DNA of 64,000 nt from Candidatus Omnitrophota bacterium (GTDB lineage: Bacteria > Omnitrophota > Omnitrophia > Omnitrophales > Aquincolibacteriaceae): contig DAOSLF010000004.1 of NCBI GenBank assembly GCA_035368605.1, positions 29,388-93,387 on the forward strand, read 5' to 3'. This document shows positions 9,042 through 25,630 of this stretch, piece after piece. Position 1 is the stretch's first letter; the number at the start of each line of letters is the position of its first letter. Below the pieces are notes generated by a model. That model ran no database searches, was not told where the DNA came from, and saw only the letters and a program-made list of their open reading frames with translations. Both the position numbers and the translations under genes were made by a program.

Positions 9042-9081
9042 CAGACCGCCCTTTGGCTGACAGAACCGCTTCATCGCCATC

Positions 9082-9387
9082 TCACATTCCTCCCTGGATT
9101 TTATAAGCCACCGACAAAAGCAGTGTGACAAGCACCCGATTCACAAAAACAAGCAAAATGAAAGCCAGGATCGGCGAGAAATCCATCGGGCCGATCCTGA
9201 TCGGAATCTTCCGGAGCGGTTCAAGGATCGGATCGGTCACCTGCATAAGGAACTGGACCACGCTGGAATAAGGGTCCACGGGAAACCAGGAAATGATGAT
9301 CCGCGCGAACAGCATCCAGTAGAGGATCGTCGTGATCCCGTTGACGAGCATCGCAAGCGCCTTGAATATTTCCGCAAAAATGAACAT
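9082..9387 (-). CDS. YggT-family membrane protein (Ycf19-like).
   Basis: 101 aa with 2-3 TM helices. Located in the conserved yggS-proC-yggT arrangement. Confidence 0.7.
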   Translation of the reverse strand: MFIFAEIFKALAMLVNGITTILYWMLFARIIISWFPVDPYSSVVQFLMQVTDPILEPLRKIPIRIGPMDFSPILAFILLVFVNRVLVTLLLSVAYKIQGGM

Positions 9388-9432
9388 CTCTTTTCCTTTT
9401 CCTCGTCTTCAAAATCGGGGAGTGACCCCGCT

Positions 9433-10242
9433 CTATTTTGCCCGAAGCTGGCGGCTGCGTCGCGCCGCGGCCGCAAGAGCGGATTGGAAGATTTTTCCGA
9501 ATCTCTTTTTCATGAGCATCTTCAGCGCCGCTTCGGTCGTCCCCTTTTTGGAAGTGACCTTCTGCCGGAGCTCCGCGCAGGAGTCCGCCGAGTTCTTTGC
9601 GAGAAGCGCCGCGCCCAGCCCCGTCTGGATCGCGAGCCGTGCCGCGACTTTTGCCGGTATCCCGCGTTTCACGCCGAAATCGGTCAGGAGTTCCATCAGA
9701 TAAAAAAAGTACGCCGGACCGCTACCGCTCATCGCCGTCACGTCGTCGAAGGCATTTTCGGGAAGCGTCACGACCTCGCCGCATCCTTCAAAGATCTCCG
9801 CGGCCGCGCCAAGCAACATCTTGTCCTGACCCGTGATGGCGGTCATGGCTCCGCCGACTTTGGCGCCGAGATTCGGCATCGCGCGAACCACGGAAACGGG
9901 GCCGAGTCCTTGCCGGATCTTTTCGACCGTAAACCCCGCGAGGATCGAGATCACGCCTTGTTTCTTTTCGAGGAACTTCTTCGCTTCAACCGCGAAATCC
10001 GGAAAATCCTGGGGTTTGATCGCGAGCAGAAGGATATCGCTTCCGCGGATCAACGCTTCGAGACTATGCGCCGCTTTCCCGCGGATCGCTTTCGCGAAGG
10101 AGCGCGCTTTTGCCGGGAACTTGTCATAAATCGCGATGGCCGTGCCTTTTAAGATGCCTTTGCGGCAGGCCCCCTCGATGATGGAGGTGCCCATATTGCC
10201 GGCACCGACCAATCCGATCTTGTTAAAACCGCGCTTCTTCAT
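9433..10242 (-). CDS. proC: Pyrroline-5-carboxylate reductase.
   Basis: 269 aa. N-terminal Rossmann motif GLVGAGNMG. P5CR signatures MSGSGPAYFFYLME and VTSKKGTTEAAL. Confidence 0.9.
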   Translation of the reverse strand: MKKRGFNKIGLVGAGNMGTSIIEGACRKGILKGTAIAIYDKFPAKARSFAKAIRGKAAHSLEALIRGSDILLLAIKPQDFPDFAVEAKKFLEKKQGVISILAGFTVEKIRQGLGPVSVVRAMPNLGAKVGGAMTAITGQDKMLLGAAAEIFEGCGEVVTLPENAFDDVTAMSGSGPAYFFYLMELLTDFGVKRGIPAKVAARLAIQTGLGAALLAKNSADSCAELRQKVTSKKGTTEAALKMLMKKRFGKIFQSALAAAARRSRQLRAK

Positions 10243-10370
10243 TTAGCCAATGGCTTTCCTTGAATAAATTTTGGTGCCTTGTCCACGATGCTTGTGCTTG
10301 GCGAACCGCACAGATTCCTCAGCGGTGTACCATGCGCTGAAATCTCCGGACCTTCGCAGGGGAACGCATT

Positions 10371-11060
10371 TTACTGCTTTCTCTCTCCGAATACCAGCGT
10401 CCCGATCCTCAGGAGGGTGCTTCCTTCCGCGACCGCGATCCGAAAATCGCCTGACATCCCCATGGACAGGATGTCCCAGGAATGCGCCGCGTGTTCCGCG
10501 CGGAGCATTGCGAGAAGCTCCCCGGTTCGCTTAAAACATTCCCGGATCCTCGCCTCATCGTCCGTCAGGGGGCCGATCGTCATAATGCCTTTCACCTTGA
10601 TCCGCGGCAACTTCGTGATCTCCGAAGCGAGCCAGGACGCTTTTTCCGGTTCGATCCCCGACTTTGTTTCCTCGCCGGACATGTTGACCTGGATCAGGCA
10701 CGGGACTGCCGCGACACTTCGTTTTTCCGCCTGTCGTTCGATCTCGCCGGCGAGTTCCACGCGATCCAGGGAATGGATCAGATGGACCTGCCCCACCACA
10801 TGCCTGACCTTGTTCGTCTGGAGAGGGCCGATCAAATGCCACCGGATATCCGCGGGGAGGGCATCCTTTTTTTTCCGCCATTCCTGGACACGGTTCTCGC
10901 CAAAGTCACGCTCGCCGGAATCGTAGGCTTCGCGGATCCCTTCCGGGCTCACCGTCTTCGTGACGATCACGAGCCGGATATCCCCGGGGTGGCGATTCGC
11001 GCTAACCGCGGCATCGCGGATGTCTTTTTTCAGCTTTTGGATATTCTCACCAAAGCTCAT
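10371..11060 (-). CDS. YggS/PLPBP-family pyridoxal-phosphate homeostasis protein.
   Basis: 229 aa. Fold-type III PLP barrel with the N-terminal V(I)VTKTVS lysine region. Length is typical, and it sits adjacent to proC and yggT. Confidence 0.85.
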   Translation of the reverse strand: MSFGENIQKLKKDIRDAAVSANRHPGDIRLVIVTKTVSPEGIREAYDSGERDFGENRVQEWRKKKDALPADIRWHLIGPLQTNKVRHVVGQVHLIHSLDRVELAGEIERQAEKRSVAAVPCLIQVNMSGEETKSGIEPEKASWLASEITKLPRIKVKGIMTIGPLTDDEARIRECFKRTGELLAMLRAEHAAHSWDILSMGMSGDFRIAVAEGSTLLRIGTLVFGERKQ

Positions 11061-11107
11061 GACTCAGGCTCTCCGGGACATCGTCTTCGATGTCAAACGA
11101 TCCGGAC

Positions 11108-12103
11108 TCATTTTTGCTCCCGGCTTTTTTCGCGCCGGGCGGCCTCGTCTTTTTCCAAAGCCTTCATCAGGTCCAGGAATTTTATCACACGCACGCGATC
11201 GATCAGAATCACATCCCCCGTACTTTCCATCTTTCCGTAGTAGGCGTTCTCGAGCGGCACCTCATTCCCGAAATTAAAGACCTCCCCGCCTCCCGCGGCA
11301 TCCGGATCGCCTTCGACCCGAATCCGGTCATGAATGACATAGAACCCGAACTCGGCATCGGAACGGTCCCCGCGGTCGAGAAATTTTTTAACGTTCAACC
11401 CGTCCAATCCCCGGAACACGAGCTCCATCCGGTCCGGAGGCATTTCCCTTCCGAAATTCGAGACCGGCTCGATCCAGTACCACTTTCCCTGGTCCTTTTT
11501 CCATTCGTAGGCATTGGGCCCCATCTCGACAAAGACCTTCCGGGCTTCCGCCATGGGGGTCCGGAACACGGACTTGTCACGGAGGGTGTAAAGGCTCACG
11601 TCAAAAGCGGACTTCAGTTCGGGGGTCACGAGGATATAGCCGCGCTCCTTGGCCCAGCGCGCGTAGACCGCCTTCCCGATGGGGGACGCGGCCCCGAAGT
11701 TCAGCGTGCTCTCATGCGTCTTGTCGGTCACGACGCGGACTTCCATGCCGGGCTTCTCGAGCCCGTATTCGGCCCAGTCCTTCTCGGCGCGAAGCCGGGT
11801 CTGTTGCGAGGCGAAACGCAAAGCTACCGCAAGTCCCGATACTGCCTGCTGCTCGGCAAGACTGTTCACCGGCGAAACGATGCGCCATGTCTCCCGGACC
11901 TTTTCCAGGGTGAGCGCGGTTCCCGCCGCCGGGTTCCGGATCTCGATCCGTATCACCTGCTCGCCCGGTTCCATCGAGAACCCCCGGCTCACCTCGTCGG
12001 GACTGATCGCAAGAATGTCCCTGTCAATCCTTGCCCGGTAAAGGTAGACCGCGATCGCAAGGGCGAACAACAGACAGATGACGATCGTCCGGCCGAGTTT
12101 CAT
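11108..12103 (-). CDS. DUF4340-like membrane-anchored protein accessory to the GldG-like ABC system.
   Basis: N-terminal TM anchor (MKLGRTIVICLLFALAIAVYLY) followed by a beta-rich region. The track ORF starts further upstream. The likely start ATG overlaps the gldG-like stop as ATGA at about 12100-12103. Confidence 0.55.
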   Translation of the reverse strand: MKLGRTIVICLLFALAIAVYLYRARIDRDILAISPDEVSRGFSMEPGEQVIRIEIRNPAAGTALTLEKVRETWRIVSPVNSLAEQQAVSGLAVALRFASQQTRLRAEKDWAEYGLEKPGMEVRVVTDKTHESTLNFGAASPIGKAVYARWAKERGYILVTPELKSAFDVSLYTLRDKSVFRTPMAEARKVFVEMGPNAYEWKKDQGKWYWIEPVSNFGREMPPDRMELVFRGLDGLNVKKFLDRGDRSDAEFGFYVIHDRIRVEGDPDAAGGGEVFNFGNEVPLENAYYGKMESTGDVILIDRVRVIKFLDLMKALEKDEAARREKSREQK

Positions 12104-13515
12104 GACGTGCGCAGCCGGATCACAAGATAGAGGCCGCCGATCACGATAAAAAGCAGCGGATAGACCGCCAGGACCGAGAACACCAGCAGGCTTTGTTTCG
12201 GGATATCGAGGAGAAGCGGCTTGAACTTGAACTGCGGTTTCTGGACCTCGATAAAGCGGTCGTCCTTGGCCAGCCACTGGAAGATTCTGAGACCGAACTC
12301 CTTGTTCCCGGAAAGACTGAGATAACCGTTGGTGAGAAAATCGCTATCACCAACGATGATCATCCTGCCGCCAGTTTCCGGTCCATTGTCTGCGGCCGGC
12401 GCCTCTTCCGACGTGATGGCCGCATGCTTCTGCTTTCCGTCCGTGATTTGTTCGACCGCGATCGCCGCGGGCAGCGGCCCGGCGATATCCGACTTCGGAT
12501 CAAAGGTCACGGTCCCGTCTTCAAGCGCGGACAGGTTCGATTCCGCCCAGCTCCCAGGCCCCGTCATGGCGAGCGGGACCACCTCAAATCCCGGCACCGT
12601 ATCGGTCGAGGGCTGGACGCTTCGAAGCAACGGAAAAAAAGTCGCCTGTTTCATGGTCTTCGACACCGGATGACGGACAAAATACTGGCTGACGAGCGGC
12701 ATCAGAAAATCGCCGCCGACGATCCGGCTGGCCTTATCGACCACCACATTGTCGCCGAGCGCGACCCCCATCGACTTCGCAAAAGCCGGGAAGGCCTTTC
12801 CAGTCCCCGGATCCATCGGATCAAGGAGCAAAAGAAGCCCCTTTCCTTGCCGGAACGCTTTTTTCAGATCATCAAATTCCTCCGGGGTGGGCTCCCATCG
12901 CGGACCCGCGAGTGCAACCACCTGACAGGCATCGGGGACATGATCGCGGGAAAGAACGATTTCGTTCACGCGCGTATTGAAACCTTCAAGGGTCGTCCGA
13001 AACATGTCGTAGGTAACGGGTTCGTCGCCCCGCAATTCGACCTCGCCATGTCCCTTCACAAAACAGACATCCACCGTCCGCGGGTGCAGGATCCGCAGAA
13101 ACGCGTTTGTGAACGCCTCTTCGTTCGGCGTCACGATCCGTTCCTCGTGATCCCCCGAACGGATGATGATTGTCGCGGGTGTCGTCACCTGGAATTTCTT
13201 GGCGAGGGTGGGACGGCGCACGGGATCGTAAAAATCGAAATGAAAATCCGGATGCTGGCGTTGGCATTCCCTCAAAAAGATCTCCAGACCGCGCCGCGCG
13301 GGGTCATCCTGAAGGTAGAAGGCCGAGACCTGAAGCGGTTTGGATCGGAGATCCCGGAGGATACTCGCCGTGCTTTTCGGCAACGAGTAGACCTTCTCCG
13401 CCGTAAGGTCCCAGCGATAGTCGTAACGATCCAGGATCGCGCCCACCAGCACGAGCGTCGCAAAAAGCAGCACCGCCTCAAGCACCAGCTGGAATTTGAG
13501 GAAGAAATGTTTCAT
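12100..13515 (-). CDS. GldG-like auxiliary component of an ABC-type uncharacterised transport system.
   Basis: 471 aa. N-terminal and C-terminal TM helices flank a large periplasmic domain. Located directly downstream of the ABC-2 permease and ATPase. Confidence 0.7.
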   Translation of the reverse strand: MKHFFLKFQLVLEAVLLFATLVLVGAILDRYDYRWDLTAEKVYSLPKSTASILRDLRSKPLQVSAFYLQDDPARRGLEIFLRECQRQHPDFHFDFYDPVRRPTLAKKFQVTTPATIIIRSGDHEERIVTPNEEAFTNAFLRILHPRTVDVCFVKGHGEVELRGDEPVTYDMFRTTLEGFNTRVNEIVLSRDHVPDACQVVALAGPRWEPTPEEFDDLKKAFRQGKGLLLLLDPMDPGTGKAFPAFAKSMGVALGDNVVVDKASRIVGGDFLMPLVSQYFVRHPVSKTMKQATFFPLLRSVQPSTDTVPGFEVVPLAMTGPGSWAESNLSALEDGTVTFDPKSDIAGPLPAAIAVEQITDGKQKHAAITSEEAPAADNGPETGGRMIIVGDSDFLTNGYLSLSGNKEFGLRIFQWLAKDDRFIEVQKPQFKFKPLLLDIPKQSLLVFSVLAVYPLLFIVIGGLYLVIRLRTS

Positions 13516-14297
13516 TCGAAATGCTTCCAGTTGCGGGTTTCGATCGAGCGGAGGGAAAGGAACAGGAAATAAAAGAAAAAGAAACCGAAATAGATGATGT
13601 CACGGAGGTCCAGGATCCCGTACGTGAGGTTACGGAAGTGCTGAAGGGGCGACATGGCGCTGAGGATCACGGGCACCCCGCCCTCTCCCGTCATCGGAGC
13701 AAGGTCCATCATCCAGAAAACGATGAGAAGCGCGAATGTCCCCACCGCGCTGATCATGGGGTTCCTGGTGAGCGTCGACACGAATACACCCGCCGCAAGA
13801 TAAGCGGTGCCCAAGGCCCAGAAACCGAGAAACCCCGAGATGACTGGCCCCCAATCCAGCTCGCCTCCGATCAGGTGGAAGATCAGGAAATATCCCGCGA
13901 GCGGCACGAGGAGGATCTCAAAGAACCAGATCAGCCCTATCAGCTTGCCGGCAACGATCTCGAGATCGGAGAGCGGATAAGTGAAGAGAAGTTCGAGCGT
14001 TTCATGCTTGCGCTCTTCCGAGAACGAGCGCATCGTCAGGATCGGAACGAGAAAAAGAAGGATCACGTTCGCGTTCAGGAAAAAAGAACCGAAGATGTAA
14101 TGGGTCTGGCTGACGTTCGGGAAACTCGTCTGGCTCCCCGCAAGACGCGGGTCCATCGACAGTTTCGCGTAGCTCAGCACCAGCACGGTGAAAAAGATTC
14201 CGGTCACGAGGAAAAAGAACGCCCCCGTGAAAACGCCCGTCCAGGAATGAAAAAGGGACGAACACTCCTTTTTGGCGACCGTGAACGCTTTTCTCAT
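13512..14297 (-). CDS. ABC-2 type transporter permease (GldF-like).
   Basis: 261 aa with 6 predicted TM helices. Sits between the ABC ATPase and the GldG-like gene. Its stop overlaps the gldG-like start by 4 nt. Confidence 0.7.
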   Translation of the reverse strand: MRKAFTVAKKECSSLFHSWTGVFTGAFFFLVTGIFFTVLVLSYAKLSMDPRLAGSQTSFPNVSQTHYIFGSFFLNANVILLFLVPILTMRSFSEERKHETLELLFTYPLSDLEIVAGKLIGLIWFFEILLVPLAGYFLIFHLIGGELDWGPVISGFLGFWALGTAYLAAGVFVSTLTRNPMISAVGTFALLIVFWMMDLAPMTGEGGVPVILSAMSPLQHFRNLTYGILDLRDIIYFGFFFFYFLFLSLRSIETRNWKHFE

Positions 14298-14402
14298 TCC
14301 GTTAGAAACGCGTTATAGCGTCTCCCCTCCCATACTTATCGGCAGACATTAAAATACCGCCAGACATCCCGCGGTCCCTGCGCTTCCCGTCTCTAACGGG
14401 GC

Positions 14403-15401
14403 TCATGCCGCCCTCCGCATTTGGAACCATCCGTCCTTCAGAAGCTTCAGAAAAATCTCCTCGAGCGTCAGCTGGTCCCGGCGAACCTCCAGAAGAGGCA
14501 GCCGGTTTTTCACGAAAAGTTCCGTGATCTCGGGACGAAGGTCCAGCGGGTGCGAGGTCTCGAGGCAGAACCGGATCTCGCCTTCATGGCGTTCGACCAC
14601 CCGGATATTTTCGGCACCGGGAATCTGGACCAGAAGGTCCGTCACGACCCTCTCATGTTCGGGACCGCGAACGGTCACGAAGATGGCATCCCGGTCCTTC
14701 AGACAGGCCTCAAGCTCCCGCACCGTGCCGCTCGCGAGTACCTGCCCCTGATGGATCATGAGGACGCGGTTGCAGACCATGGAAACCTCGGAGAGGATGT
14801 GGGTCGACAGAATCACGGCCCGTTCCCTGCCAAGTGTCCGGATGAGCTCCCGGATTTCGGTGATCTGTTTGGGATCGAGCCCCGTCGTCGGCTCGTCCAG
14901 GATGAGAACCGAAGGATCCCCGATCAGGGCCTGTGCGAGCCCGACCCGCTGACGGTAACCTTTCGACAGGCGCCCGATGAGGCGGTGCGAAACCTCGGAG
15001 AGCCCGCATTGCGTGATCTTTTCCTCCACCTCGTCGGTGCGGCGTTTCTCGGGCACTCCCTTGAGACCGGTGACAAACCGCAGGTATTCCCGCACTCGCA
15101 TATCGGGATAAAAGCGGACTGTTTCCGGAAGATAGCCGACCCGCTGTTTCGCGCGGCGGGGATCCTTGAACAGGTCGATGCCCTCGATCTCCACATGCCC
15201 GGAGGACGGAGCGAAATAACCGGAAAGGATACGCATCGCGGTCGTTTTGCCCGCGCCGTTGGGACCGAGGAACCCCACCACTTCGCCGCGCGCGATCTCA
15301 AAAGATAAATTGTCGACGACCGCGCGCTTGCCGTAATTCTTCGTCACGCTTTCAAAGCGGACGACCCCTTCAGCGGAACGCGGCTTGCGAACAGTAACCA
15401 T
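14403..15401 (-). CDS. ABC transporter ATP-binding protein (GldA-like).
   Basis: 332 aa. Walker A GPNGAGKTT. ABC signature LSKGYRQRV. Walker B ILILDEPTTGLD. H-loop present. Confidence 0.85.
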   Translation of the reverse strand: MVTVRKPRSAEGVVRFESVTKNYGKRAVVDNLSFEIARGEVVGFLGPNGAGKTTAMRILSGYFAPSSGHVEIEGIDLFKDPRRAKQRVGYLPETVRFYPDMRVREYLRFVTGLKGVPEKRRTDEVEEKITQCGLSEVSHRLIGRLSKGYRQRVGLAQALIGDPSVLILDEPTTGLDPKQITEIRELIRTLGRERAVILSTHILSEVSMVCNRVLMIHQGQVLASGTVRELEACLKDRDAIFVTVRGPEHERVVTDLLVQIPGAENIRVVERHEGEIRFCLETSHPLDLRPEITELFVKNRLPLLEVRRDQLTLEEIFLKLLKDGWFQMRRAA

Positions 15402-15404
15402 GGC

Positions 15405-16616
15405 TCAGGCGGGTTCGATGCGGGCAAACTTGCGCTTCCCGCACTGCAGGACGATCGTTTTTTCGATTTTGAGGACGGTTTTCGGATCAGAAACTTTTTC
15501 CTGGTCGACCTTCACGCCGCCCTGCTCGACAAGGCGGCGCCCTTCCGACTTGCTCGCGACCAGTCCGGCTTCGCCAAGGAGTGAAACGATATCGATCTCT
15601 CTTTTTTCGATCTTTACGGTCGGGATCTCATCGGGAAGACCTTTTTTCCTGAAGATTTCGTCGAATTCCTGCGAAGCCTGGCGGCCCGCCTCGATACTGT
15701 GAAAAAGCGTCACGATCCGTTCCGCGAGTTTCGCCTTCATTTCGCGGGGATGCAGTTCACCCTTTTTCAACCCCAGGACGATCGCACCCGTTTCTTCGGA
15801 CGGCAGCGCGCTCACATAGCGATAAAAACGTTCCATCAGCGGGTCCGGGATCGACATCACCTTGCCGAACATTTCGCGGGGCGTGTCCTTGAGGGCGATG
15901 TGATTGCCGAGACTTTTCGACATTTTCTGGACACCGTCCGTTCCCTCAATCAACGGAAGGGTCATCACAACTTGCGGTTCCTGCCCGTCAAGCTTCTGAA
16001 GCTCCCGTCCCACGAGCAGGTTGAATTTCTGATCCGTCCCGCCGAGTTCGACATCGGACCGGATCACGACGGAGTCATGCCCCTGCATCAGCGGATACAG
16101 AAATTCGACGATCGCGATGGGTTCGTTCGCTTTGTAGCGTTTTGAAAAATCATCCCGTTCGAGGATCCGGGCCACGGTGTACTGCGCGGTGAGTTTCAAA
16201 AACGCCTGCGGTGTAAGCTTGTCGAGCCATTCGGAGTTATAGCGGACTTCGGTTTTCGAACGGTCCAGAATCTGGAAGACCTGCTCCTGATAGGTCAGGG
16301 CGTTCTTTTTCACCTGTTCTTCGGAAAGCATGGGCCGCGTCCCGGATTTTCCGGAAGGGTCCCCTATGCGCGCCGTAAAATCGCCGATGATAAAGACAAC
16401 GAGGTGTCCCAAGTCCTGAAGCTGGCGGAGTTTACGAAGCGGCACGGTGTGGCCGAGGTGAAGGTCCGGCGCCGAAGGATCGGCCCCGTATTTGATGCGA
16501 AGCGGGCGGTTCTTTTTCAGGGAATCCGTGAGTTTGGCCTCAAGCTCCTTTTCAGAGATGAATTCAACGAGGTTTTCCCTGAAGATCGCCAGCTGTTCCG
16601 GAACGGGTTTAAACAC
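15405..16616 (-). CDS. tyrS: Tyrosine--tRNA ligase.
   Basis: HIGH motif ([10 protein letters not shown]) and KMSKS motif. C-terminal S4 domain. The track ORF begins at a GTG at 16709. A GTG 31 codons downstream (VFKPVPEQ) is preceded by a strong SD (AAGAGGTGG) and is the more likely start. Confidence 0.9.
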
Positions 16617-16703
16617 TGCTATCCACCTCTTTTGCAACAGGTTACGGATGAGGTGATATTTTAACAACGAGGAGAACGAATGGAAAGGAATTAGTAAGGG
16701 CAG

Positions 16704-16738
16704 GGACACTCATTCTTCAACAAGAATGAGTGTCCCCG
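16704..16738 (-). other. Perfect 15-bp inverted repeat (stem-loop) in the intergenic region between giant gene 1 and tyrS.
   Basis: GGGACACTCATTCTT-caaca-AAGAATGAGTGTCCC. A perfect 15-bp stem with a 5-nt loop. No canonical U-tract follows on either strand. Confidence 0.5.
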
Positions 16739-16801: not shown

Positions 16802-19800
16802 TTACGCGGATCTCGCAATAAGCGCCCGTTCGACAAACCGTTCGGCGATCGAGGCGATCGTGAGAGCGCCGATCGTGAATCCCGACGTTCCCTTCTTGCC
16901 GTAATTCGGAACAATATCCTCAAGGACTTTCAGGAGCGTGTCCCCGCTCAGCTCAGCAACCGAGGAAAGCTCGACAATGAGCCGGCCGATCAGCTTGAGA
17001 TCACCGCGCCCGACGTTGGCTGTAACAGCGAAGTTATTGCCGCCTTCAAGCAATTCGAGGACAGCCTCGTCATCAAAGAGCGTGGCGATCTTCCCGTCAA
17101 GACTGGCGGTCAGCGTTTTAACAACGCCGACTTCGGTCTGCCCCGCCGCGAGAACATGGATGCCGAGAATCTCTCCGGACTTCAGGGCGGCAACAATCTC
17201 ATCACGCTCCCTGAAATCCTTCGGGGCCACCGCATTCTTGCGGTAAAGCGCCTTTATCATCTCTTCGAACATTCCGGCATCCCCCGAAGTCTTGAGCAGG
17301 GTCTTCACGCCGGCAGCCCTGGCCTTATCGCGGTAGATCTTCAGAACATCGAACAGCGTCCCGGCGTCCTCGCGGATGAACCGGTTCATAAAGCTCCCGC
17401 TCACATAGAACGTGCCGTTGGATTCCAGGTCCTCCGGCGACATGACAAGTTCCGTTCTCTGGCCCGCGGTAAAATACTTGTCCAGTAGCGCCGTTTCGGG
17501 AGCGCGGGTCGCGGCGCTTGCCTTCGAGATACCGACCTTTGCCATCAGCATCCCCAGGACTTCCGTGCCGTGGCGGAACTGTTCCATGACCGCCTGACGG
17601 ACCGTTTCGGGGAAGATCCCGAAGCGCAGGTGCCGCACGAAAGCGAGAAACGAAGGCATCGTGATCCGGCGAAGATCAGGCTCGAGGTCTTTAACACCGA
17701 ACCCGTCTTGCGTGTTTGCGGGAACCGCATTCACCGCGACCGACGTCGTCGGGAGCGTCGGGGAGATCCGGGCTTCAGCACGAAGGGCCCCTGCGGTTCC
17801 GTCATACCCCTGAAGTCCGTTTTTCCGGAGTTCCTGAATATCGACACGCCGTCCTTCCATCACCCGCTTGATAATGATCGGATACAATTTAAGATTAGCC
17901 ACCCAGCTTTCCACAGGTCCTTCCCACTGCTTGGTAGCCAGAAACCGGAACACAACCCGGTCCATAAAAGCAGCCTTGTCATAATCCGAAAGCGCGTTAA
18001 AACGATCCATATCGAATTCCCGAAGGCTGGCTGTGCCGACCGCCCTCACTCGCACATTGTCAGAAACCTCACCCGTAACTTCATGCATGTTTCCCTCCGC
18101 CTTGCCAAGGCCGATGACGCTCAGGTCTTTCGAGGGTTTCGGGTCGAAAAGCAGCGGCAATTTCGCACGTCCACGCTCCGCGAGTTTCTCCAAAGTCCCT
18201 TTGGATCTGGCATCGCGCATCTCGTTGACGAAATCATCAAAAGACTGCGTCGCATCCCTCCGGTAAATGTCCGCAATGTATTTTGGCGTATAAATAGCAA
18301 CTGCGTTATTCATCCCCACAACATCCGCGGAATTCACTTTCCGGATGAGCCGGTAGTCCCCTTCGGCATTCCTGAACACGGCGATCCGCGACTCTTCTTT
18401 TTCTTTATCAGCATTCGCCAACTGCCGAAGCCCCTTGACGGTCATGATCGTCTCTGTTTCATAGGAGAGGTCCGTCGGCTCGATTTCGATGCTCTGGCCG
18501 GCCATAATCTTCGCCTCCAGATCGGACAAAACCCCTGCAGGAAGTTTTTCGGGTGTTTTTCCCTTGCCGGTAGCGGGATCGATTTGCAACTGTCTCCGCC
18601 AACCATCTTTCTCATAATCCGCGACAATCCGTTTCCAGGTCGCTTCAATGGAAGGGTCTTCCGCGATCCGGTGATTGCCTCTTTGCCCAATCATCCAAGC
18701 CCCGCCTTTCATCCCGGGCCCGCGACGCGACACCTCAAAGATCGCGTCATAACCCTTGCGATCCATCCACCCCAGTAATGTTAAAAAATTAGCGTCATAG
18801 GTTGCCGCGGCGTTGTCTATATTCCGGAACGGAATATATTTGATCCCCGCATCGATCAAGTCGAGAAGGATTCCCTTAGAGACCATTTGGTGGAAGAATT
18901 CGGCATGTCCCGCCGGATCCCGCTCCGTGGGATGGATCACCGCTTCAGGGTGACCGTTCGCGATCGCCGCTTCAACTTCTCTAGCCTTCTGAATGCTCGC
19001 GTCACGCCTTGCGTTGTGTTCTTCAATAGGGACTTCCGGAGAAGCTTTCACGGCGGTCGCATAAGCCTTGGGAATATCCCGTTCGCTCAAATAGAATTTT
19101 GGCGCGAGATCCTGCTGAAAACCGATTCTGCCCTGATTGCGAACAAACTGTTCCCCAGGAATCCCATAAAAACCGTTCCGCTTCAGCTCTTCGTTGAGTT
19201 CCTCCTGATAATTAGCGTTGGTCATGATGAGAACCCGGTTCTTCGACGTGGACGCACCCGACACGGCCGAGGAAACCTCTCTGAGAAGCATGCCGATATC
19301 CGTGAGCATCAGCCCCATGTAGGAATAAACCCGGTCACCGTACTCTCCAATAGGCGTCGCTCCCTTACTCATGAGCTTGTGCCCCTTCCCATGAAGTTTG
19401 TCGATCATGGAGAGAGCTCCCGCGGGCACCTTATCGGTCGACTGACGCGACGATGCACCCGCAGCAGCCGTGGCAAACGCGACCACGCCGCGCGCCACCA
19501 ATCCAGCGCCTCGCGAGGCGTCTTCTTTCCGTCCCGTTTCTGGCCATTGGGACATCTGGATTTCACGGAAATCGGCATCCTGACTTGGACGAACGGTTCC
19601 GCGGATTCCCGTCGGCCTCAGAGTCCCGGCAAACAATCCTACCCCGCGCGCAATCTCCGCTGCGGTCGCACCGACGCGCATTTCTGCCCGAATTCCCGCC
19701 GCTCCTGCGCGGATCGCGCGGGCATCGACAAAATCAAAGACGGTCTGCGCAATATCGTCCGCGGTGGATTGAACGGAAATCCGGTTCCACAAATAGCCGT

Positions 19801-22800
19801 CCGGCAGCTTATAGACCTCTTCCAGTTTCAGTTCGAGATCGCTCACATAAACAGAGTCCAGAACCGTCCCGACCTGATCACCGTCCTGATAAGGGACCAC
19901 CGATTCTTCGGAGATCAGCCTGATCACTTCAACCTTGATCTCGTCCCGCGTCAACGCCACAGTTGTCTCCCCATGACGGATACCCTCTCCCGCCCTCAGT
20001 TCCTGACGTGACACAAGACTTCTCTGGCCGGGCATTTCGACACGAGGCTTCGCGCCCACGGGACGAACTCTGAGTTTTCCCTTCACGATCCGAATCTCAG
20101 CCTTGGTCGCGCGGTCTTTGATCATCCGGGTCATCCTGCTCACCAGGGCAAGCTGCACACCCCGTTCGCTGTAATGACGGAACTCCCCGGTCCTGACCTC
20201 GATCGGGAGATCCGACTGTTTGAACCTCACGATCATTTCAATCGCATTCACAAGGCTGTTGACCGGAACCTGCCAGGTGTCAACCCCGACCGTCCGGATA
20301 TAAGATGGCAGCGCCGGCGTCTCGACAGCTTTGACCGCTCCCGCCCGAAGTTCCGCGCGTTGAGATTCCGGAGCGGGCTTCGGGGTGACTAATTGACGAC
20401 GAACTTCCCGGGTCAAAAAACCCGTCAGGTAAGCGCAGAGGATTTCTTTACTAACATCAGATCCTTTACCTTTAAGCTGATCCAGGAAAAGACGCATGGC
20501 CTCAGGACCTTCCGTCGCGAACCTCAGGGCCAGCGCGCGAAAAAGGGCATACTCCGAAACTCCCTCCATCAATTTCCCGATCCTGTTTTCCATCATCCAA
20601 TTGCCTCCGGCCATCAGCATCATGTGGAAATCATTCAAAATATCGCTAAGGGCCTCGAGAATGTCTGTGTGATGTTTCCCGCGCGAGGCATCTTCCCAAA
20701 GCGACTGAAGCCGCCGAAGGAACGGGACGTCGGGACGCCCCTGGGCGTCCTTGAACGCCACGCGACCAAGCCGGGCTCCTTCGAGTTGCGCATTCCCGCG
20801 GATCGCCGAATGCCGCGCGAGCATCCGCTTCCCCTCCTTCGAGATCCAAAAATCTTCAGGTACCGCCCTCCATTCGACAGTGACGGGCAGTCCTTTGACC
20901 TGACCCACGCTAAAGCGGACCGTTTTGAATTGCTGAAGAATGCTCGCAACGCTTTCCTCCGCGGCAAAAAGCACAAAACGTTTGGAGCCTGCGCGGCTCA
21001 AACCAAGAACTGAAATATCCCTGTTGTATGGAATACCGCGAGCGTCCTTGCCTCCCGCGGTAAAGCTGAGGTGCATGCCCAAACCGGACGCGGGTTCTTG
21101 CTTCACGGAAAACGTATCGTCCTTATTCTTCAGAATGAAATGGTACGGGGAAATGGGCCCCCAATCGGTGTAATAATGGCTGCGCATCATGCGCAAAAAA
21201 ACAAGCTCCTGTCCCCCATCAAGCTTCAGAACAGCCTGCTCGGGACGATATGTTTCATGATTATCAAAACCACCGAGATACCGAAAATTGGGATCTTGTT
21301 TCAGTTCCTCCATAAACCGATCCGGCGCCTTCATGAAGCGCAGTTCGTCGTCGGTCGCCCGCGGCAGATCACCCCGCATTTCGGCGCGGCCGGGCGTAAT
21401 CACGCCTTCTTTTTCAGGAACATTCCTCAACCCGGAACGCATGCGGACTTCCCGGCGAACAGCTTCGGCATCTTCAGATTCGTCGATCCCGGAACCCTCG
21501 ATCACGCCATTCCAGGTCGCGGAGGTCACTTCAACCCCGAGTTTACCGAGGATGTAGGAGCGGACATCACCCGCCGCAAACGGATCCCGGGCGAACTCTT
21601 CAGCGAACTCCCGGTATTGGGATTCTGTGATCCCATAAATCTTCGCCCACTCGATGTTTTCACTTTCGGAACGCACTTCATCCTCAAATTCCAATGTCCC
21701 CATGAGTCCGATGCCCCCGATGAAAAATCCAACCGCTGCGATCGCTTTAAGCAAATCGAGAACCGCCGAGCCCCTCGTCCTTTCAGCCTTGGTCCCCTTG
21801 CTGGGTAAGACGGCTCTCTTATCAACAGGCATTAACCGGAAAGCGGGATGGATCGCGAAAACAGCTGCGCCTGATCTTTCAGGCGGGGCCAGCATCGGAT
21901 TCACGGGGAGCTCAACGCGGTCACCGCGTGTTCGGGAGCGCGTCGCCTCGAGAGCCCTCAGAATCGCGTCGTGATTCTTTGTGTAAAAACTCTCCGCCTG
22001 CTTGTCATTCAAACCTGCTTCGCGAAGCGCGTAGGCGATCACATCAGCGATATCGCTATGCTCGTCCTTGAGGATCGTTAGGTTCGTCCGACTCCCTACG
22101 GCATCGAGAAAAAAATCGACATCTCCTTTGATATAATCGCGAAGATCCGCAGCGACTCCAGCGACCATAGCTTCCGCGTTTTCCCGCATTTCGGAACGCC
22201 GCGGCATCGCGTTGATTCTCGCAAGAAGCTTGCGCGAAAAATCCCTTACCCAAGGGTCTTGGTGATTCAGCAATTCCGGGAGGTTTGAAGCGAGGAAGTT
22301 CCGGAGAATCGGCTCATTCGCCACGCGTCCGAACCAGGCTTCCCTCTCACGTTGCCTTCCATGGTTCCCGTTTTTGAGATCCCAAAGAAGCATTTCGTCA
22401 TAAATGGGGCTGGGCGATTCTTCACCAGTGCGCCATTCCGAGCGCGCGGGCACAGTTTCCCGTTCTTGCACATCCGCCTCGAGTTGTTTGATCAGGGCCT
22501 TCCGGGCGGCGATCTGATTATCGAGAGACGCCAGTTGTTTGAATTCCCTATACTTGGGATGATAGGCTTTCGGGTTCGCGGCCAGAAGTTTCCTGTTGTT
22601 TTCCATGACGGAAAGGTTCCCCTTCTCCCGGCGAAGAAGATTACGCGCGGCCTCGAGATCCTTGTCATAAACGGGATCGGACATACGCGCCTCAGCCCGT
22701 TTACGGGGGGAAGTCTCTTCAGGAACATTATCCTGCTTTTTATACCCACCGTAACGATAGAGTGAGTAAAACGCGAACACAAAGAGCCCGGCACCGGCAG

Positions 22801-25630
22801 CGATCGCGGCATAAGACAAAAATCCCAAAGCGTTAACGATCATATTGGAATTAATAAAAACCAATGGGAGGAACCCACCGAATTCGGTCGAACGCCTGGG
22901 GCGCAGCTCCGTTCCCGACCCGCTCCGTTCCTCGGAGATCACTTTATCGAGATGAACGGTTCCGTTCGTGGACCTGACGATAAAATGAAGCCCGTCCGGT
23001 CTTTTCCGGAAATTCCAGATGGTCTGCTTCGGATCGAGCAGAACAGATGCCATAGCCGTGTCCTCGAACGGAATCTCCCCGACCACCGTCAGGACCTTGT
23101 TCCCTTTTTTGGAGATAACCGTGGAAGATTTGCCGGTCCGGGTGACGATCGGAAGCCGGCGGGGCGCGTCGGAGAGGATATAGATCCCGAATTTGCCATC
23201 GATGAAAGTCACGGCGATATCGCCAAAGAGCTTCGCGCGCATGGGCAGATTCCACAAGCGGTTGTTTAAATATTCATACCGCATGTCGCCGATGTCCTTC
23301 ACCCATTTCACTCCAGCCCCGGCCAGCTGCATCTTGTAGATCTTCCCGTCGGTCGTCTCATGGAAGAAGAAAACCTTGAGGATCGTCTGGACATCCCGAA
23401 GAAACGCCTGAAAGTCACCGCTACGCTTGAACGCTTTCAGAAGAGCTGCCAGAAGATCGTTCGCCCTCGTTTGGGGTTTTGCGGTACTTCTCTCCCTCGC
23501 CTCGGCGCGGGCAAGAGCGGAAATGATCGCGCGGTGATGATTCTCAAAAAAGACCTCAGCCTCCTCATTATTAAAACCTTCGCCGCCGAGCGTCTCATAG
23601 ATTTCCTGCGACACATCGGGGAATTCCTCACCGACCTGGGCCAGGGTTGTTTTGTTCCCCAGCGCCGTCAAAATCAGGTATCTGTCACTGGAAACGGCCT
23701 TAAGCAGATTATCCACAATGAGGTTTATCAGGGCGTCGGTCCCGGCAACCTCCCGCACCGGATCTTCCCGGGTTTCCGCGCGGAGTTGCAACGCAAGTGC
23801 CCGCGCGGCCCCGGGATTCCCGGCAAGGACGGGCAGCGCGGCGCGATATTCGGCACGGGCAAGAGCTTCGGCATCAACACCCATTGCCCTCAATTCGGCA
23901 GGCGAAGCGGACACAAACGGGGATTCGCGGGTGGAGCGGGTCACCGGGGACTGGCCGCTGGTCACTGGTTTAATACCGGCAACAGGAGACGGGCGACCAG
24001 CGACTGTCTGCAACGTGTGATTAATGTAGGCCTCATATCCGGCTTTATCCGCATCGGTGATCCTGGGCGACACAAGCGCATAGGTGTAGCCCCTGGAAGA
24101 GAAATAGTCACGGAAGGGTTCGGAGTGAAAACCGCCGGTCACGACAGCCACTTTGTCGGCCCCTGTTTCAAGGAGACGTTTTTCGATCATGCCGATCATC
24201 GCGAGGTCACGGGCCTTGACACCCTCATAGAATTTCAGGGCGCTCGCGTAAAGGGCGTCCAGTTCGCCGGTATGCCTAAAACGGACATCCTTCACCCGCT
24301 TTGACGAGCCGGCCACAGCCTTCTCAAAACGCTTTGCGATCACAGAGGGCGTCAGTTCCGTGGTCCGCTTTAAAAGAGCTTCATAGTCCGCGGGCGTCAG
24401 CTCAAGCGCGAACAGCTTCTGAAGAAGCCGGTAGTCCTTGAGAAGCGAGATCACGGTTTTTTCGGTCGCCGTGCGGGCGAGCTTGTCCGTGACGGCATCC
24501 GTCAATTTCCCGGTCTCGTTCATGAGCGCGGCCGCCTTGAGCTCGCTCGTAAGGATCAGCGTGCCGATGAAGGCGCGGACATTCGGGAAAAGGGCGTAAT
24601 TGAAATCCTGGGGAAGCTGGCGGGTCATTTCTTCAAAAAGAAGGCTGGTCTCGGGATCGGGCAACGGCTGGCTCACCGGATCATTTTTCAGAATCTTTTC
24701 GACGGCGGCGCAGACGCCCGCCCCGGGAATGAAACGCCTGATCGCCTTCAGGAACGAGTCCCGTTCCTTCGGGAGCTTCTTCGCGTCGAGTTCCCGCTGA
24801 AGCTTCCTGATCATGAAAAGCCGCGTTATCATGGGCCATTCAAGCTGTTCGGCGGGATCCCCGAGCTCAAGCTTGAGCGTCCGGGACGATTCTTCCTTCA
24901 GATAGGTAAACCACGCGTCCGGGGGCATGATCTTCTTTTCAAAGGACTCTTGCGTCCGGACGAATTTGCGGAGGTTGTCGTTGAGGTACGGCGCGGAAAG
25001 ACGCTCGATCCCCTCATTCATCTGCGCGAGGAAACCGGAGGTCTTTTCTTTTTGGGTCAACACTTCGACAAAGGCCTCGCCGTTCGCGCGGTATGCGGAG
25101 GCCTCTTCGATGCCATATCCTTCGGCCGACCCGGGATGCCGGACTTTATCGAGAAGGTAAAGTTCGGGACCTTTCACGATCGCGCTCTTCGTGAGCCGGT
25201 CCGCCACCTTCGCCGTAAGCTTGGGGTCCCTGGGGAAGAAGTTCAAGAGTTCGGGACGGAGCCTGAAAGCGCTTCCCTCGACAAGGAGCGTCCGGATGCC
25301 GTAATGCTTGTCGAGATGATGCAAGATCTGGCGGATCTTCTGCTGGGCGTCGTAGTGACCGTGAGCGGTCTGGATATGCACGACGCCCGGTCCCCGCCCC
25401 AGTTTCAGGTCCTCGATCTTCCCTATGTCCCGCGGCAGCGCGAACCGCAGGTTCGTATCGAGAACAGCCTGATACGGGAGATTCACTTCCGACATTGTTG
25501 CCGCGGCAAAAGACACTCCGGGTGTCCAAAGGGTCGTCGCGATGAACGTAACAAGCGTGACAAAAGCAATGGCGGGTTTGAATCTGCCGAAAGAAGAACT
25601 TGAGGCACTTGTGCTGTTTTTGCTGTCCAT
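16802..25630 (-). CDS. Giant (2942 aa) multidomain membrane protein of unknown function.
   Basis: A single uninterrupted 8829-nt ORF. Signal-peptide-like N-terminus FVTLVTFIATTLWTPGVSFAAA. N-terminal region with paired GxxH motifs (HIQTAHGH, VVTGGFHSEP), TraB/GumN/Tiki-superfamily-like. Hydrophobic TM segment about residues 920-960 (LPLVFINSNMIVNALGFLSYAAIAAGAGLFVFAFYSLY). A second possible TM helix lies near residue 1300. A UDPGP-family (UGPase-like) nucleotidyltransferase-like domain lies near the C-terminal third. No homologous full-length protein is recognised. Confidence 0.85.
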   Translation of the reverse strand: MDSKNSTSASSSSFGRFKPAIAFVTLVTFIATTLWTPGVSFAAATMSEVNLPYQAVLDTNLRFALPRDIGKIEDLKLGRGPGVVHIQTAHGHYDAQQKIRQILHHLDKHYGIRTLLVEGSAFRLRPELLNFFPRDPKLTAKVADRLTKSAIVKGPELYLLDKVRHPGSAEGYGIEEASAYRANGEAFVEVLTQKEKTSGFLAQMNEGIERLSAPYLNDNLRKFVRTQESFEKKIMPPDAWFTYLKEESSRTLKLELGDPAEQLEWPMITRLFMIRKLQRELDAKKLPKERDSFLKAIRRFIPGAGVCAAVEKILKNDPVSQPLPDPETSLLFEEMTRQLPQDFNYALFPNVRAFIGTLILTSELKAAALMNETGKLTDAVTDKLARTATEKTVISLLKDYRLLQKLFALELTPADYEALLKRTTELTPSVIAKRFEKAVAGSSKRVKDVRFRHTGELDALYASALKFYEGVKARDLAMIGMIEKRLLETGADKVAVVTGGFHSEPFRDYFSSRGYTYALVSPRITDADKAGYEAYINHTLQTVAGRPSPVAGIKPVTSGQSPVTRSTRESPFVSASPAELRAMGVDAEALARAEYRAALPVLAGNPGAARALALQLRAETREDPVREVAGTDALINLIVDNLLKAVSSDRYLILTALGNKTTLAQVGEEFPDVSQEIYETLGGEGFNNEEAEVFFENHHRAIISALARAEARERSTAKPQTRANDLLAALLKAFKRSGDFQAFLRDVQTILKVFFFHETTDGKIYKMQLAGAGVKWVKDIGDMRYEYLNNRLWNLPMRAKLFGDIAVTFIDGKFGIYILSDAPRRLPIVTRTGKSSTVISKKGNKVLTVVGEIPFEDTAMASVLLDPKQTIWNFRKRPDGLHFIVRSTNGTVHLDKVISEERSGSGTELRPRRSTEFGGFLPLVFINSNMIVNALGFLSYAAIAAGAGLFVFAFYSLYRYGGYKKQDNVPEETSPRKRAEARMSDPVYDKDLEAARNLLRREKGNLSVMENNRKLLAANPKAYHPKYREFKQLASLDNQIAARKALIKQLEADVQERETVPARSEWRTGEESPSPIYDEMLLWDLKNGNHGRQREREAWFGRVANEPILRNFLASNLPELLNHQDPWVRDFSRKLLARINAMPRRSEMRENAEAMVAGVAADLRDYIKGDVDFFLDAVGSRTNLTILKDEHSDIADVIAYALREAGLNDKQAESFYTKNHDAILRALEATRSRTRGDRVELPVNPMLAPPERSGAAVFAIHPAFRLMPVDKRAVLPSKGTKAERTRGSAVLDLLKAIAAVGFFIGGIGLMGTLEFEDEVRSESENIEWAKIYGITESQYREFAEEFARDPFAAGDVRSYILGKLGVEVTSATWNGVIEGSGIDESEDAEAVRREVRMRSGLRNVPEKEGVITPGRAEMRGDLPRATDDELRFMKAPDRFMEELKQDPNFRYLGGFDNHETYRPEQAVLKLDGGQELVFLRMMRSHYYTDWGPISPYHFILKNKDDTFSVKQEPASGLGMHLSFTAGGKDARGIPYNRDISVLGLSRAGSKRFVLFAAEESVASILQQFKTVRFSVGQVKGLPVTVEWRAVPEDFWISKEGKRMLARHSAIRGNAQLEGARLGRVAFKDAQGRPDVPFLRRLQSLWEDASRGKHHTDILEALSDILNDFHMMLMAGGNWMMENRIGKLMEGVSEYALFRALALRFATEGPEAMRLFLDQLKGKGSDVSKEILCAYLTGFLTREVRRQLVTPKPAPESQRAELRAGAVKAVETPALPSYIRTVGVDTWQVPVNSLVNAIEMIVRFKQSDLPIEVRTGEFRHYSERGVQLALVSRMTRMIKDRATKAEIRIVKGKLRVRPVGAKPRVEMPGQRSLVSRQELRAGEGIRHGETTVALTRDEIKVEVIRLISEESVVPYQDGDQVGTVLDSVYVSDLELKLEEVYKLPDGYLWNRISVQSTADDIAQTVFDFVDARAIRAGAAGIRAEMRVGATAAEIARGVGLFAGTLRPTGIRGTVRPSQDADFREIQMSQWPETGRKEDASRGAGLVARGVVAFATAAAGASSRQSTDKVPAGALSMIDKLHGKGHKLMSKGATPIGEYGDRVYSYMGLMLTDIGMLLREVSSAVSGASTSKNRVLIMTNANYQEELNEELKRNGFYGIPGEQFVRNQGRIGFQQDLAPKFYLSERDIPKAYATAVKASPEVPIEEHNARRDASIQKAREVEAAIANGHPEAVIHPTERDPAGHAEFFHQMVSKGILLDLIDAGIKYIPFRNIDNAAATYDANFLTLLGWMDRKGYDAIFEVSRRGPGMKGGAWMIGQRGNHRIAEDPSIEATWKRIVADYEKDGWRRQLQIDPATGKGKTPEKLPAGVLSDLEAKIMAGQSIEIEPTDLSYETETIMTVKGLRQLANADKEKEESRIAVFRNAEGDYRLIRKVNSADVVGMNNAVAIYTPKYIADIYRRDATQSFDDFVNEMRDARSKGTLEKLAERGRAKLPLLFDPKPSKDLSVIGLGKAEGNMHEVTGEVSDNVRVRAVGTASLREFDMDRFNALSDYDKAAFMDRVVFRFLATKQWEGPVESWVANLKLYPIIIKRVMEGRRVDIQELRKNGLQGYDGTAGALRAEARISPTLPTTSVAVNAVPANTQDGFGVKDLEPDLRRITMPSFLAFVRHLRFGIFPETVRQAVMEQFRHGTEVLGMLMAKVGISKASAATRAPETALLDKYFTAGQRTELVMSPEDLESNGTFYVSGSFMNRFIREDAGTLFDVLKIYRDKARAAGVKTLLKTSGDAGMFEEMIKALYRKNAVAPKDFRERDEIVAALKSGEILGIHVLAAGQTEVGVVKTLTASLDGKIATLFDDEAVLELLEGGNNFAVTANVGRGDLKLIGRLIVELSSVAELSGDTLLKVLEDIVPNYGKKGTSGFTIGALTIASIAERFVERALIARSA

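Follow-up and report, generated by a model that had tools for sequence, protein, structure and literature searches.

A giant modular Omnitrophota protein with a recurrent R-[S/A]-E-x-R motif at its module junctions belongs to a large chassis-plus-cargo family and may be a polyprotein

The 64,000-nucleotide stretch of Candidatus Omnitrophota DNA analysed here (the window; NCBI GenBank assembly GCA_035368605.1, contig DAOSLF010000004.1, positions 29,388 to 93,387 of the forward strand) contains a giant gene on the minus strand at 16802-25630, and its product (hereafter the query) is an unexceptional member of a very large 'chassis plus cargo' protein family restricted to Omnitrophota. Comparison of the members showed a shared architecture consisting of a Sec signal, a head of ~500 amino acids (aa), cargo modules and a ~300-aa alpha/beta tail ending in Ala, and also showed that the modules, bounded by the pentapeptide motif R-[S/A]-E-x-R, are the unit of gain, loss and exchange. 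The reading that we tentatively favour, and would place a little below probable, is that the modules may be separated by proteolytic processing at these motifs, that is, that the chain would be a polyprotein, with the head as the leading candidate protease. The feature coordinates are collected in Table 1; both the recurrent motif and the conserved tail had been overlooked in the initial annotation of the window, which was made from its letters.

The reading frame of 2942 codons runs from ATG to stop without interruption, with a GC content of ~0.55 on par with the remainder of the window. The exact 2942-aa protein was called on 7 contigs of independent assemblies, including JGI 3300025682 and NCBI GCA_029553765.1 (contig JAKPKJ010000084.1, 184 kb), and an allele of 2672 aa, 99% identical to the query, was found on 5 further contigs. 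Because the exact product recurs on 7 independently assembled contigs, the giant open reading frame (ORF) is no frameshift-joined artefact; an assembly or frameshift origin, which the initial annotation had raised as a concern, is ruled out by these 7 contigs together with the 5 that carry the allele, and the uninterrupted 8.8-kb ORF described there is confirmed. The Pfam scan of the protein gave partial UDPGP as the sole match, from one family, and the NCBIfam scan gave no match.

A protein search with the query (5.8 billion proteins) retrieved 76 matches, all of them long (1.6-5.1 kaa), and the named organisms among them were all Candidatus Omnitrophota save two Endomicrobia. Only 14-26% of the query is common to these relatives, and BLAST located the common part in the N-terminal ~600 aa. 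An exhaustive profile search with the head alignment retrieved 10,013 representatives of 50%-identity clusters at E <= 1e-3, including 6,918 with E <= 1e-30; among the matches listed, proteins whose N-terminal end is present have the head domain close to it, and many of them are long, reaching 7,823 aa. In a scan of GTDB species genomes, the named records with the head were from Omnitrophota only, with several copies per genome and at least four in HK-STAS-OMNI-5, and the origin from a host-associated candidate phylum suggested earlier is thus borne out. Membership was defined by a head with QxAH...EG...R[D/N]xxM...GG[F/Y]H, at least two R-[S/A]-E-x-R junctions or a clade-specific substitute, and a C-terminal alpha/beta domain ending in Ala; all three are present in the query, and an independent group of 107 representatives shows them again. 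Members seen range from ~1,000 to 7,800 aa, the smallest (1,000-1,400 aa) being composed of a head, one cargo and a tail. Pfam matches in the variable parts of the relatives include phosphoglucomutase (PGM), UDPGP, glutamate dehydrogenase (GDH), triose-phosphate isomerase (TIM), phosphofructokinase (PFK), glucose-6-phosphate isomerase (PGI), fructose-bisphosphatase (FBPase), hexokinase, citrate synthase and acetate kinase, the glycogen enzymes glycogen phosphorylase, glycogen synthase and branching enzyme, and HEAT repeats, response regulators, CsrA and SecA-DEAD. The initial annotation had seen no recognisable full-length homologue and no described family; neither view survives, given the 99% allele, two relatives (P0003 and P0004) that have head, UDPGP module and tail in common with the query, a head found in at least 10,013 clusters, and the multi-enzyme giant Omnitrophota proteins reported in preprints (10.1101/2023.11.21.568195; 10.64898/2026.06.07.730766). 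Family paralogues can also lie near each other within one genome, as that of P0045 has two of them ~4 kb apart; the second (L002:17349-20935 (-), 3906 aa, with a faint AAA_5 match) carries RSETR and RSELR ahead of a ~270-aa tail with the terminus ...KAKVSA.

In the query, 10 R-[S/A/T]-E-x-R motifs were counted against 0.28 expected from composition, and the maximum in 200 shuffles was 2. Together with the variant RQELR, these strict motifs make up 11 sites, whose ends at residues 596, 621, 712, 982, 1067, 1149, 1419, 1762, 1879 (RQELR), 1985 and 2621 divide the chain into the head, modules M1 to M10 and the tail. A similar motif excess was found in most of the 76 homologues and in most of the 107 further representatives, and the logo of 522 sites reads [A/S]-R-[S 73%, A 16%]-E-[L/V/A/M]-R, with Pro, Ala and Ser mildly enriched upstream and Glu downstream. 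Among window ORFs of at least 150 aa, 10 of the 12 motif matches fall within the giant gene and the second giant ORF has none; in two further genomes the motif is likewise concentrated in family genes. The codons at the 11 query sites are heterogeneous (CGT, CGC, CGG or AGG for Arg; GCC, GCG, GCT, GCA, TCG or TCC at the Ser/Ala position), and the constraint therefore acts on the peptide, not on the DNA. The junction motifs sit in disordered, Ala/Ser/Pro-rich linkers, and their flanks are disordered in both AlphaFold2 (AF2) models (pLDDT < 50 at residues 551-580 of the head model and 1-33 of the tail model). An internal start, recoding signal or reassigned codon was ruled out as the meaning of the motif by the heterogeneous codons and by x often being Ala, Trp, Thr or Tyr, and a Ser phosphorylation site by the replacement of Ser by Ala in 16% of sites and the replacement of Ser in 9 of the 11 query sites. 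Members on deep branches that have the family head but no RSExR (P0058, P0060, P0065, P0069, P0070, P0072, P0123, P0155, P0170, P0171, P0174, P0179 and P0181) carry other recurrent short motifs, either [A/G/S]-S-L-G in up to 12 copies or [A/S]-R-L-A (7 copies in P0065), and these members largely group together by head sequence.

Consecutive motifs are spaced by about the length of a domain (median 191 aa, interquartile range 116-383), and the first module (head) and the last (tail) have medians of 630 aa and 302 aa, respectively. Alignment of the 2672-aa allele (L084:3001-11019) to the query revealed one clean 810-nucleotide (nt) indel from motif 6 (RSEMR) to motif 7 (RAEMR), with its junction within a shared motif-coding 12-mer, CCGAAATGCGGG, and 44 substitutions in ~8,000 nt outside the indel; each of the two alleles was recovered from several independent assemblies. 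P0010 likewise equals P0009 plus one duplicated 92-aa module between motifs. When modules were matched to other proteins (299 matches, identity no higher than 80%, module coverage of 80% or more), the start projected from the module lay within 10 aa of a strict motif in 42% versus 4.7% at random, and the projected end in 50% versus 5.5%. The query's UDPGP-like module is found again in P0003, P0004 and P0012, with the match beginning at most 2 residues from their upstream motif; P0018 embeds a complete TIM (Pfam positions 2-244 of 245) that starts 7 aa past one RSEAR and ends 4 aa before the next; and in P0027, GDH and CsrA end 7 aa and 4 aa, respectively, ahead of a motif. Exchange of cargo was also seen at an orthologous locus, that of P0005 in a distant Omnitrophota genome, which is syntenic downstream (tyrS, ABC ATPase, ABC-2 permease, GldG-like ABC_transp_aux, DUF4340, YggS-like, ProC and PNP; window 8232-16709 (-) versus L001:15378-23191). 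The P0005 orthologue keeps the head (55% identity), has a tail that ends ...SRSA, and carries GDH in place of UDPGP. These comparisons demonstrate that motif-bounded modules are gained, lost and exchanged as units.

The head begins behind a predicted Sec-type signal peptide or signal anchor. This call rests on inspection and hydropathy, agrees with the signal peptide of the initial annotation (basic R16/K18, a hydrophobic stretch at 17-39, then SFA↓AA), and is accompanied in the AF2 model by a helix at 17-35 followed by a disordered stretch. The AF2 head model (pLDDT 83.8, pTM 0.76) has a six-stranded alpha/beta core (strands 70-76, 82-88, 114-117, 170-173, 493-499 and 516-522) broken by a ~300-aa helical insert at 177-489, and its fold relatives include the erythromycin esterase EreC (9.5), HopBA1 (9.3), a TraB-family protein (9.3) and ChaN (8.9). 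In an alignment of 30 head sequences, down to 20% identity, the invariant residues are Q87, A89, H90, E118, G119, E156, G173, E175, Y180, F467, R474, G499, G500, H502, P522 and Y535, and a GGFH-type motif, with the invariant R474 (RDxxM) upstream of it, was present in all homologues inspected. The 'TIKI fold' is a central parallel beta-sheet flanked by helices, and active members of the superfamily have a 2His/2Glu site, with the His-Glu pairs H85/E113 in Bcr135 and H3902/E3930 in RRSP and a second His, H4030, in RRSP, all close to the C-terminal ends of core strands (PMC6254334). The head model has this fold, and its H90-E118 spacing of 28 equals that of both pairs (PMC6254334); H90, E118 and the second His, H502, each follow a predicted core strand. 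The head shares with TIKI, EreA, ChaN and TraB proteins the parallel beta-sheet core and its flanking helices. As in these proteins, the first core strand is followed by one His and a late strand by another, the latter within a GxxH that has an R-[D/N]-x-x-[M/W] helix ahead of it; RDxxM-(~20)-GGFH of the query parallels RNxxW-(~20)-GALH of Escherichia coli YbaP. The head differs from them in being the N-terminal part of modular proteins of 1-8 kaa. On this model, the head has a TIKI-superfamily fold with an apparently intact hydrolase site, without being a Pfam TraB/GumN member; the TraB/GumN/Tiki-like domain proposed in the initial annotation is accordingly upheld at the level of the fold.

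At the other end of the chain, the tail, preceded by a motif in nearly every member, shows ~20% identity and the recurring features F-x-x-G-I-x-P, NPRALF-x-LL and LPG. The sole invariant column of its alignment is the last residue, Ala (query codon 16805-16807 (-)); counted over all members, this Ala was present in 58 of 76 and 71 of 107, several of the exceptions being labelled partial by their source, and the penultimate residue is mostly Ala, Ser or Met. The terminal Ala might serve as a tag for a factor that binds the C-terminus.

Between head and tail, the query cargo comprises eight orphan modules, two of them with a membrane anchor, and one UDP-sugar pyrophosphorylase-like enzyme. M2-M9 (~1,400 aa) gave no match to Pfam and no relatives within the family by BLAST. 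An internal repeat links M2 (622-707; 23510-23767 (-)) with the first 86 aa of M6 (21926-22183 (-)) at 29% identity (E = 1e-9); M2 closes with ARAEAR, and the corresponding point of M6 reads EATRSRTR (RSRTR), apparently a decayed motif. For M10, Pfam PF01704 (UDPGP) matched residues 2238-2326 (18653-18919) with E = 4.7e-8 and 32.6 bits against a cut-off of 22, and M10 alone reached 35.1 bits against the gathering cut-off of 22. Coverage was partial, at profile positions 163-248 or 162-250 of 413, so that about 90 positions of the profile are matched. Weak PDB matches to eukaryote-type UGPases were also obtained, in which PAGH, NIDN and MKGG align to Leishmania UGP. Gathering score and motifs thus place M10 with UDPGP, the coverage being partial and the Gly-rich loop diverged: it shares the P-x-G-H, N-x-D-N and K-G-G motifs with the UGPase/UAP family but differs in its Gly-rich loop (AAAGASSRQ), in GHAE instead of GHGD, in large insertions and in being embedded in a polyprotein-like chain. 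From its sequence, M10 is a candidate, diverged UDP-sugar pyrophosphorylase-like module, as the initial annotation had also proposed.

Hydropathy revealed three hydrophobic segments in the query (17-39, 920-958 and 1287-1315), the last two corresponding to the transmembrane (TM) helices noted earlier. The positive-inside rule predicts head and M1-M3 outside, M4-M6a inside and all past TM2 (UDPGP and tail) outside, and in the allele without M6 the predicted side of UDPGP and tail is inside. By crude hydropathy, 81% of modules family-wide are without TM helices, and single-TM modules, the commonest TM-bearing type, number 104 versus 38 with two; in the examples inspected, the helix is at the module end or close to it, an arrangement also seen in anchored proteins that stand alone. 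The number of internal TM helices shows no parity constraint, which argues against a fixed topology for the intact chain.

The case for a polyprotein cut at its motifs starts from the pentapeptide. Because protein-level selection maintains it at each junction irrespective of which domains flank it, one common factor must read it. Most economically, the factor would be a site-specific endopeptidase, and the modules would be separated after translation; complete proteins that each end near a short site, behind a built-in hydrolase, bear the signature of a polyprotein. The free TM parity and the prevalence of single-TM modules among the anchored ones lend weaker support to this reading. Given processing at the motifs, the head is quite likely the protease, because its fold has proven site-specific endopeptidases (TIKI1/2 and RRSP), whose catalytic residues it keeps, and it is present in every member; as a built-in protease, it would act in cis on a tether of ~45 residues, and either in cis or in trans on the sites that follow. 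The wider proposition, that a sizeable part of the Omnitrophota proteome consists of Sec-targeted polyproteins cut at R-[S/A]-E-x-R or x-S-L-G-like equivalents by a TIKI-fold head, is possible but doubtful.

Several observations weigh against the processing reading. Cleavage at the motifs is a prediction from sequence, and the TIKI superfamily also includes non-proteases. The full 2His/2Glu signature was not found, the Glu of ExH being Gln/Thr in the head (Q87-T88-A89), which has the other invariant glutamates E156 and E175. The ~300-aa insert further sets the head apart from TIKI, EreA, ChaN and TraB proteins, and no link of the head to solved structures or Pfam was found at the sequence level: hmmscan gave no match of the query to Pfam TraB/GumN PF01963 at E <= 1, and hhalign of the head against a shallow YbaP/TraB alignment was negative with and without the insert (probability 0.4-0.7%), a weak result given the shallow template. 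Foldseek with the whole head model against the PDB returned spurious coiled-coil matches only, probably because of the helical insert. The head is predicted outside the cytoplasmic membrane, behind a signal peptide, and the motifs lie on both sides of it in the crude topology, which argues equally against a one-compartment protease cutting after insertion; the cargo enzymes UDPGP, TIM, GDH, PGM and PFK need cytoplasmic substrates. Finally, motif type tracks head clades, and because shared ancestry explains this without co-evolution of protease and substrate, the co-variation was not used as evidence.

The chain may instead remain whole as a membrane-tethered scaffold of several domains or enzymes, with the motif as a hinge or as a docking site for a common partner, for example head, tail or an export factor; this uncleaved scaffold is a real possibility, although we consider it improbable on balance. 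It suits the treatment of Omnitrophota giant proteins in the literature as single membrane-associated polypeptides and the detection of peptides of the V. archaeovorus giant protein (PMC10066038; 10.1101/2023.11.21.568195); motifs in disordered linkers fit docking as well as cleavage, and the invariant head and tail are conceivable binding partners of the repeated motif. However, ordinary linkers do not retain a single pentapeptide in thousands of paralogues and at junctions that are otherwise unrelated, and complete enzymes whose native-like termini lie 4-7 aa from the motifs resemble concatenated proteins rather than evolved fusions. In an uncleaved chain, moreover, the loss of a single-TM module that separates the 99%-identical alleles would move all downstream parts to the opposite compartment, and TM parity is unconstrained. 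A variant of the processing reading, differing in where the processing would occur, is a delivered multi-effector resembling MARTX: the chassis would export or translocate the chain into prey or host, where it would be processed and its enzymes would rewire the sugar and glycogen metabolism of the prey. The signal peptide, the conserved termini around a variable cargo centre, the swapping of cargo at orthologous loci and the short inter-module sites agree with this, as do a head fold common to the MARTX effector RRSP (PMC6254334), the predatory or epibiotic habit reported for Omnitrophota (PMC10066038) and a family cargo dominated by cytoplasm-requiring sugar-phosphate and glycogen enzymes behind a signal peptide. 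We nevertheless judge it unlikely, since RTX repeats, a C80 cysteine protease domain, a type I secretion system (T1SS) signal and adjacent secretion genes were not seen, many modules have TM anchors, and several paralogues per genome sit amid housekeeping synteny.

Two further explanations carry much less weight. The motif-coding repeat might be a DNA-level device, supplying microhomology for cassette shuffling and encoding a peptide without function; the location of the 810-nt indel junction within 12 nt of motif-coding identity (CCGAAATGCGGG) and the gain, loss and duplication of modules at motifs speak for it, but the amino acids are conserved at 11 query sites with heterogeneous codons, a 5-residue peptide is too short and too degenerate in DNA for an efficient recombination site, and the shuffling is better taken as a by-product, which makes this account very improbable. 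Least credible of all is the role that the initial annotation had suggested, a giant adhesin that mediates cell-cell attachment or a function in envelope glycoconjugates. The signal peptide and membrane segments in a host-associated phylum, lpxA upstream and the UDPGP-like cargo speak for such a role, yet the Pfam scan of the query found no adhesin, Ig, cadherin, beta-helix or lectin repeats, the neighbourhood is one of general housekeeping, the syntenic orthologue has GDH instead of UDPGP, and the adhesin-like giant gene of the window is another gene, without the motif.

Giant ORFs are a hallmark of Omnitrophota, with roles called poorly understood (PMC10066038), and the phylum's giant multi-enzyme proteins have been described as Archaeovorins (West-Roberts et al. 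2023, 10.1101/2023.11.21.568195) and as class-1 'multi-enzyme metabolic clusters' (Nielsen & Lui 2026, 10.64898/2026.06.07.730766). Whether the giant proteins act whole or cleaved is treated as an open question with unknown cleavage points; the reported proteins have an N-terminal C39 or S8 peptidase domain or no identifiable domain, and the preprints speculate on cleavage by the C39 or S8 domains (10.1101/2023.11.21.568195). The present family resembles them in phylum, in signal peptide and TM helices, and in cargo (HEAT, GT5/starch synthase, PGM, PGI, TIM, FBPase, SecA-DEAD, response regulators and methyltransferases). It differs in size, ~1,000-7,800 aa against definitions of >=10,000 or >=30,000 aa, and in having an unannotated TIKI-fold head in place of C39/S8 N-termini. 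The giant proteins are recognized by at least 10,000-30,000 aa, many Pfams (glycosyltransferases, methyltransferases, glycoside hydrolases, NUDIX and HEAT) and C39/S8 near the N-terminus, whereas the query has 2942 aa, a single Pfam family and no C39/S8 N-terminus. No mention of the junction motif, the conserved tail or the head family was found in the open-access literature text, and 'motif', 'linker' and 'cleav' are absent from the text of the 2026 preprint (10.64898/2026.06.07.730766). The architecture of head, junction motif and tail appears to be undescribed.

The closest comparison in layout is the MARTX toxins of Vibrio, in which conserved terminal regions frame variable effector modules and a protease domain lies in the same chain; these have RTX repeats, a C80 protease activated by inositol hexakisphosphate (InsP6), T1SS export and the junction X-Leu↓Ala/Ser/Gly. 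Viral polyproteins and the gingipain/HagA polyproteins of Porphyromonas offer a looser comparison. The present family is like MARTX in layout only, with conserved ends, variable cargo recombined between close relatives and short inter-module sites; its cargo is made of central-metabolic enzymes and membrane-anchored orphan modules instead of toxins, its junction is R-[S/A]-E-x-R, and neither RTX, C80 or T1SS features in the query (Pfam, E <= 1) nor T1SS genes nearby were found.

The family model supplies a head with candidate catalytic residues, a junction motif that predicts module boundaries in thousands of proteins, and a conserved tail. Were the motifs scissile, they would represent a polyprotein mode of bacterial gene expression, and annotation and structure prediction could handle every orphan stretch as a protein of its own; if they are not, they would still be a new short linear signal that is read by a common partner and marks the break-points of cargo exchange between strains. 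If the wider proposition were true, glycolytic, glycogen-metabolism and amino-acid enzymes, regulators and membrane proteins would be made as such polyproteins, a cellular parallel to the polyproteins expressed by viruses and to the autoprocessing of MARTX, and the motifs would give a first cleavage map for the giant proteins of the phylum, their coding repeats also driving cargo shuffling.

Table 1. Features of the giant gene and its product (window positions; residues of the 2942-aa protein)
Feature	Residues	Positions	Strand	Remark
Whole ORF, 2942 aa + stop		16802-25630	(-)	identical product on 7 independent contigs
Sec-type signal peptide or signal anchor (predicted)	1-44	25499-25630	(-)	R16/K18 basic, hydrophobic 17-39, then SFA↓AA
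Conserved head, EreA/ChaN/TraB/TIKI-type alpha/beta core	62-550	23981-25447	(-)	
Q-T-A-H, first invariant His motif (H90)	87-90	25361-25372	(-)	end of strand 82-88
E118, invariant Glu	118	25277-25279	(-)	28 residues past H90
G-G-F-H, second invariant His motif (H502)	499-502	24125-24136	(-)	
Motif 1, RAEYR	592-596	23843-23857	(-)	
Motif 2, RAETR	617-621	23768-23782	(-)	
Motif 3, RAEAR	708-712	23495-23509	(-)	
Hydrophobic segment, C-terminal end of M3	920-958	22757-22873	(-)	one long or two TM helices
Motif 4, RAEAR	978-982	22685-22699	(-)	
Motif 5, RSEWR	1063-1067	22430-22444	(-)	
Motif 6, RSEMR	1145-1149	22184-22198	(-)	upstream edge of module without counterpart in 2672-aa allele
Module M6 + closing motif, 810 nt, 270 codons	1150-1419	21374-22183	(-)	present/absent between 99%-identical alleles
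Hydrophobic segment inside M6	1287-1315	21686-21772	(-)	one TM helix
Motif 7, RAEMR	1415-1419	21374-21388	(-)	
Motif 8, RAELR	1758-1762	20345-20359	(-)	
Motif variant RQELR	1875-1879	19994-20008	(-)	
Motif 9, RAEMR	1981-1985	19676-19690	(-)	directly ahead of UDPGP-like module
Module M10, UDP-sugar pyrophosphorylase-like cargo (candidate)	1986-2616	17783-19675	(-)	631 aa
Motif 10, RAEAR	2617-2621	17768-17782	(-)	ahead of tail domain
Conserved C-terminal module (tail)	2622-2942	16805-17767	(-)	alpha/beta core ~2741-2942, terminus ...LIARSA

The neighbourhood of the giant gene is mixed housekeeping (ileS, proC, tyrS, ABC transporter, lpxA, fabF, rpsA and aromatic amino-acid genes), and no conserved neighbouring protease or secretion gene was seen at the three loci inspected; the tyrS-ABC-DUF4340 block conserved downstream looks like ordinary synteny. 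Several ORFs of 200-400 aa, for example 17570-18778 and 18887-20011, run antisense to the giant gene. The second giant ORF of the window (44122-52194 (-), 2690 aa) encodes five YDG domains, eight GLUG motifs and a C-terminal FecR domain, with a weak filamentous-haemagglutinin-type match at the N-terminus and 0 R-[S/A]-E-x-R motifs, and its product is an adhesin-like protein of a class distinct from the query.

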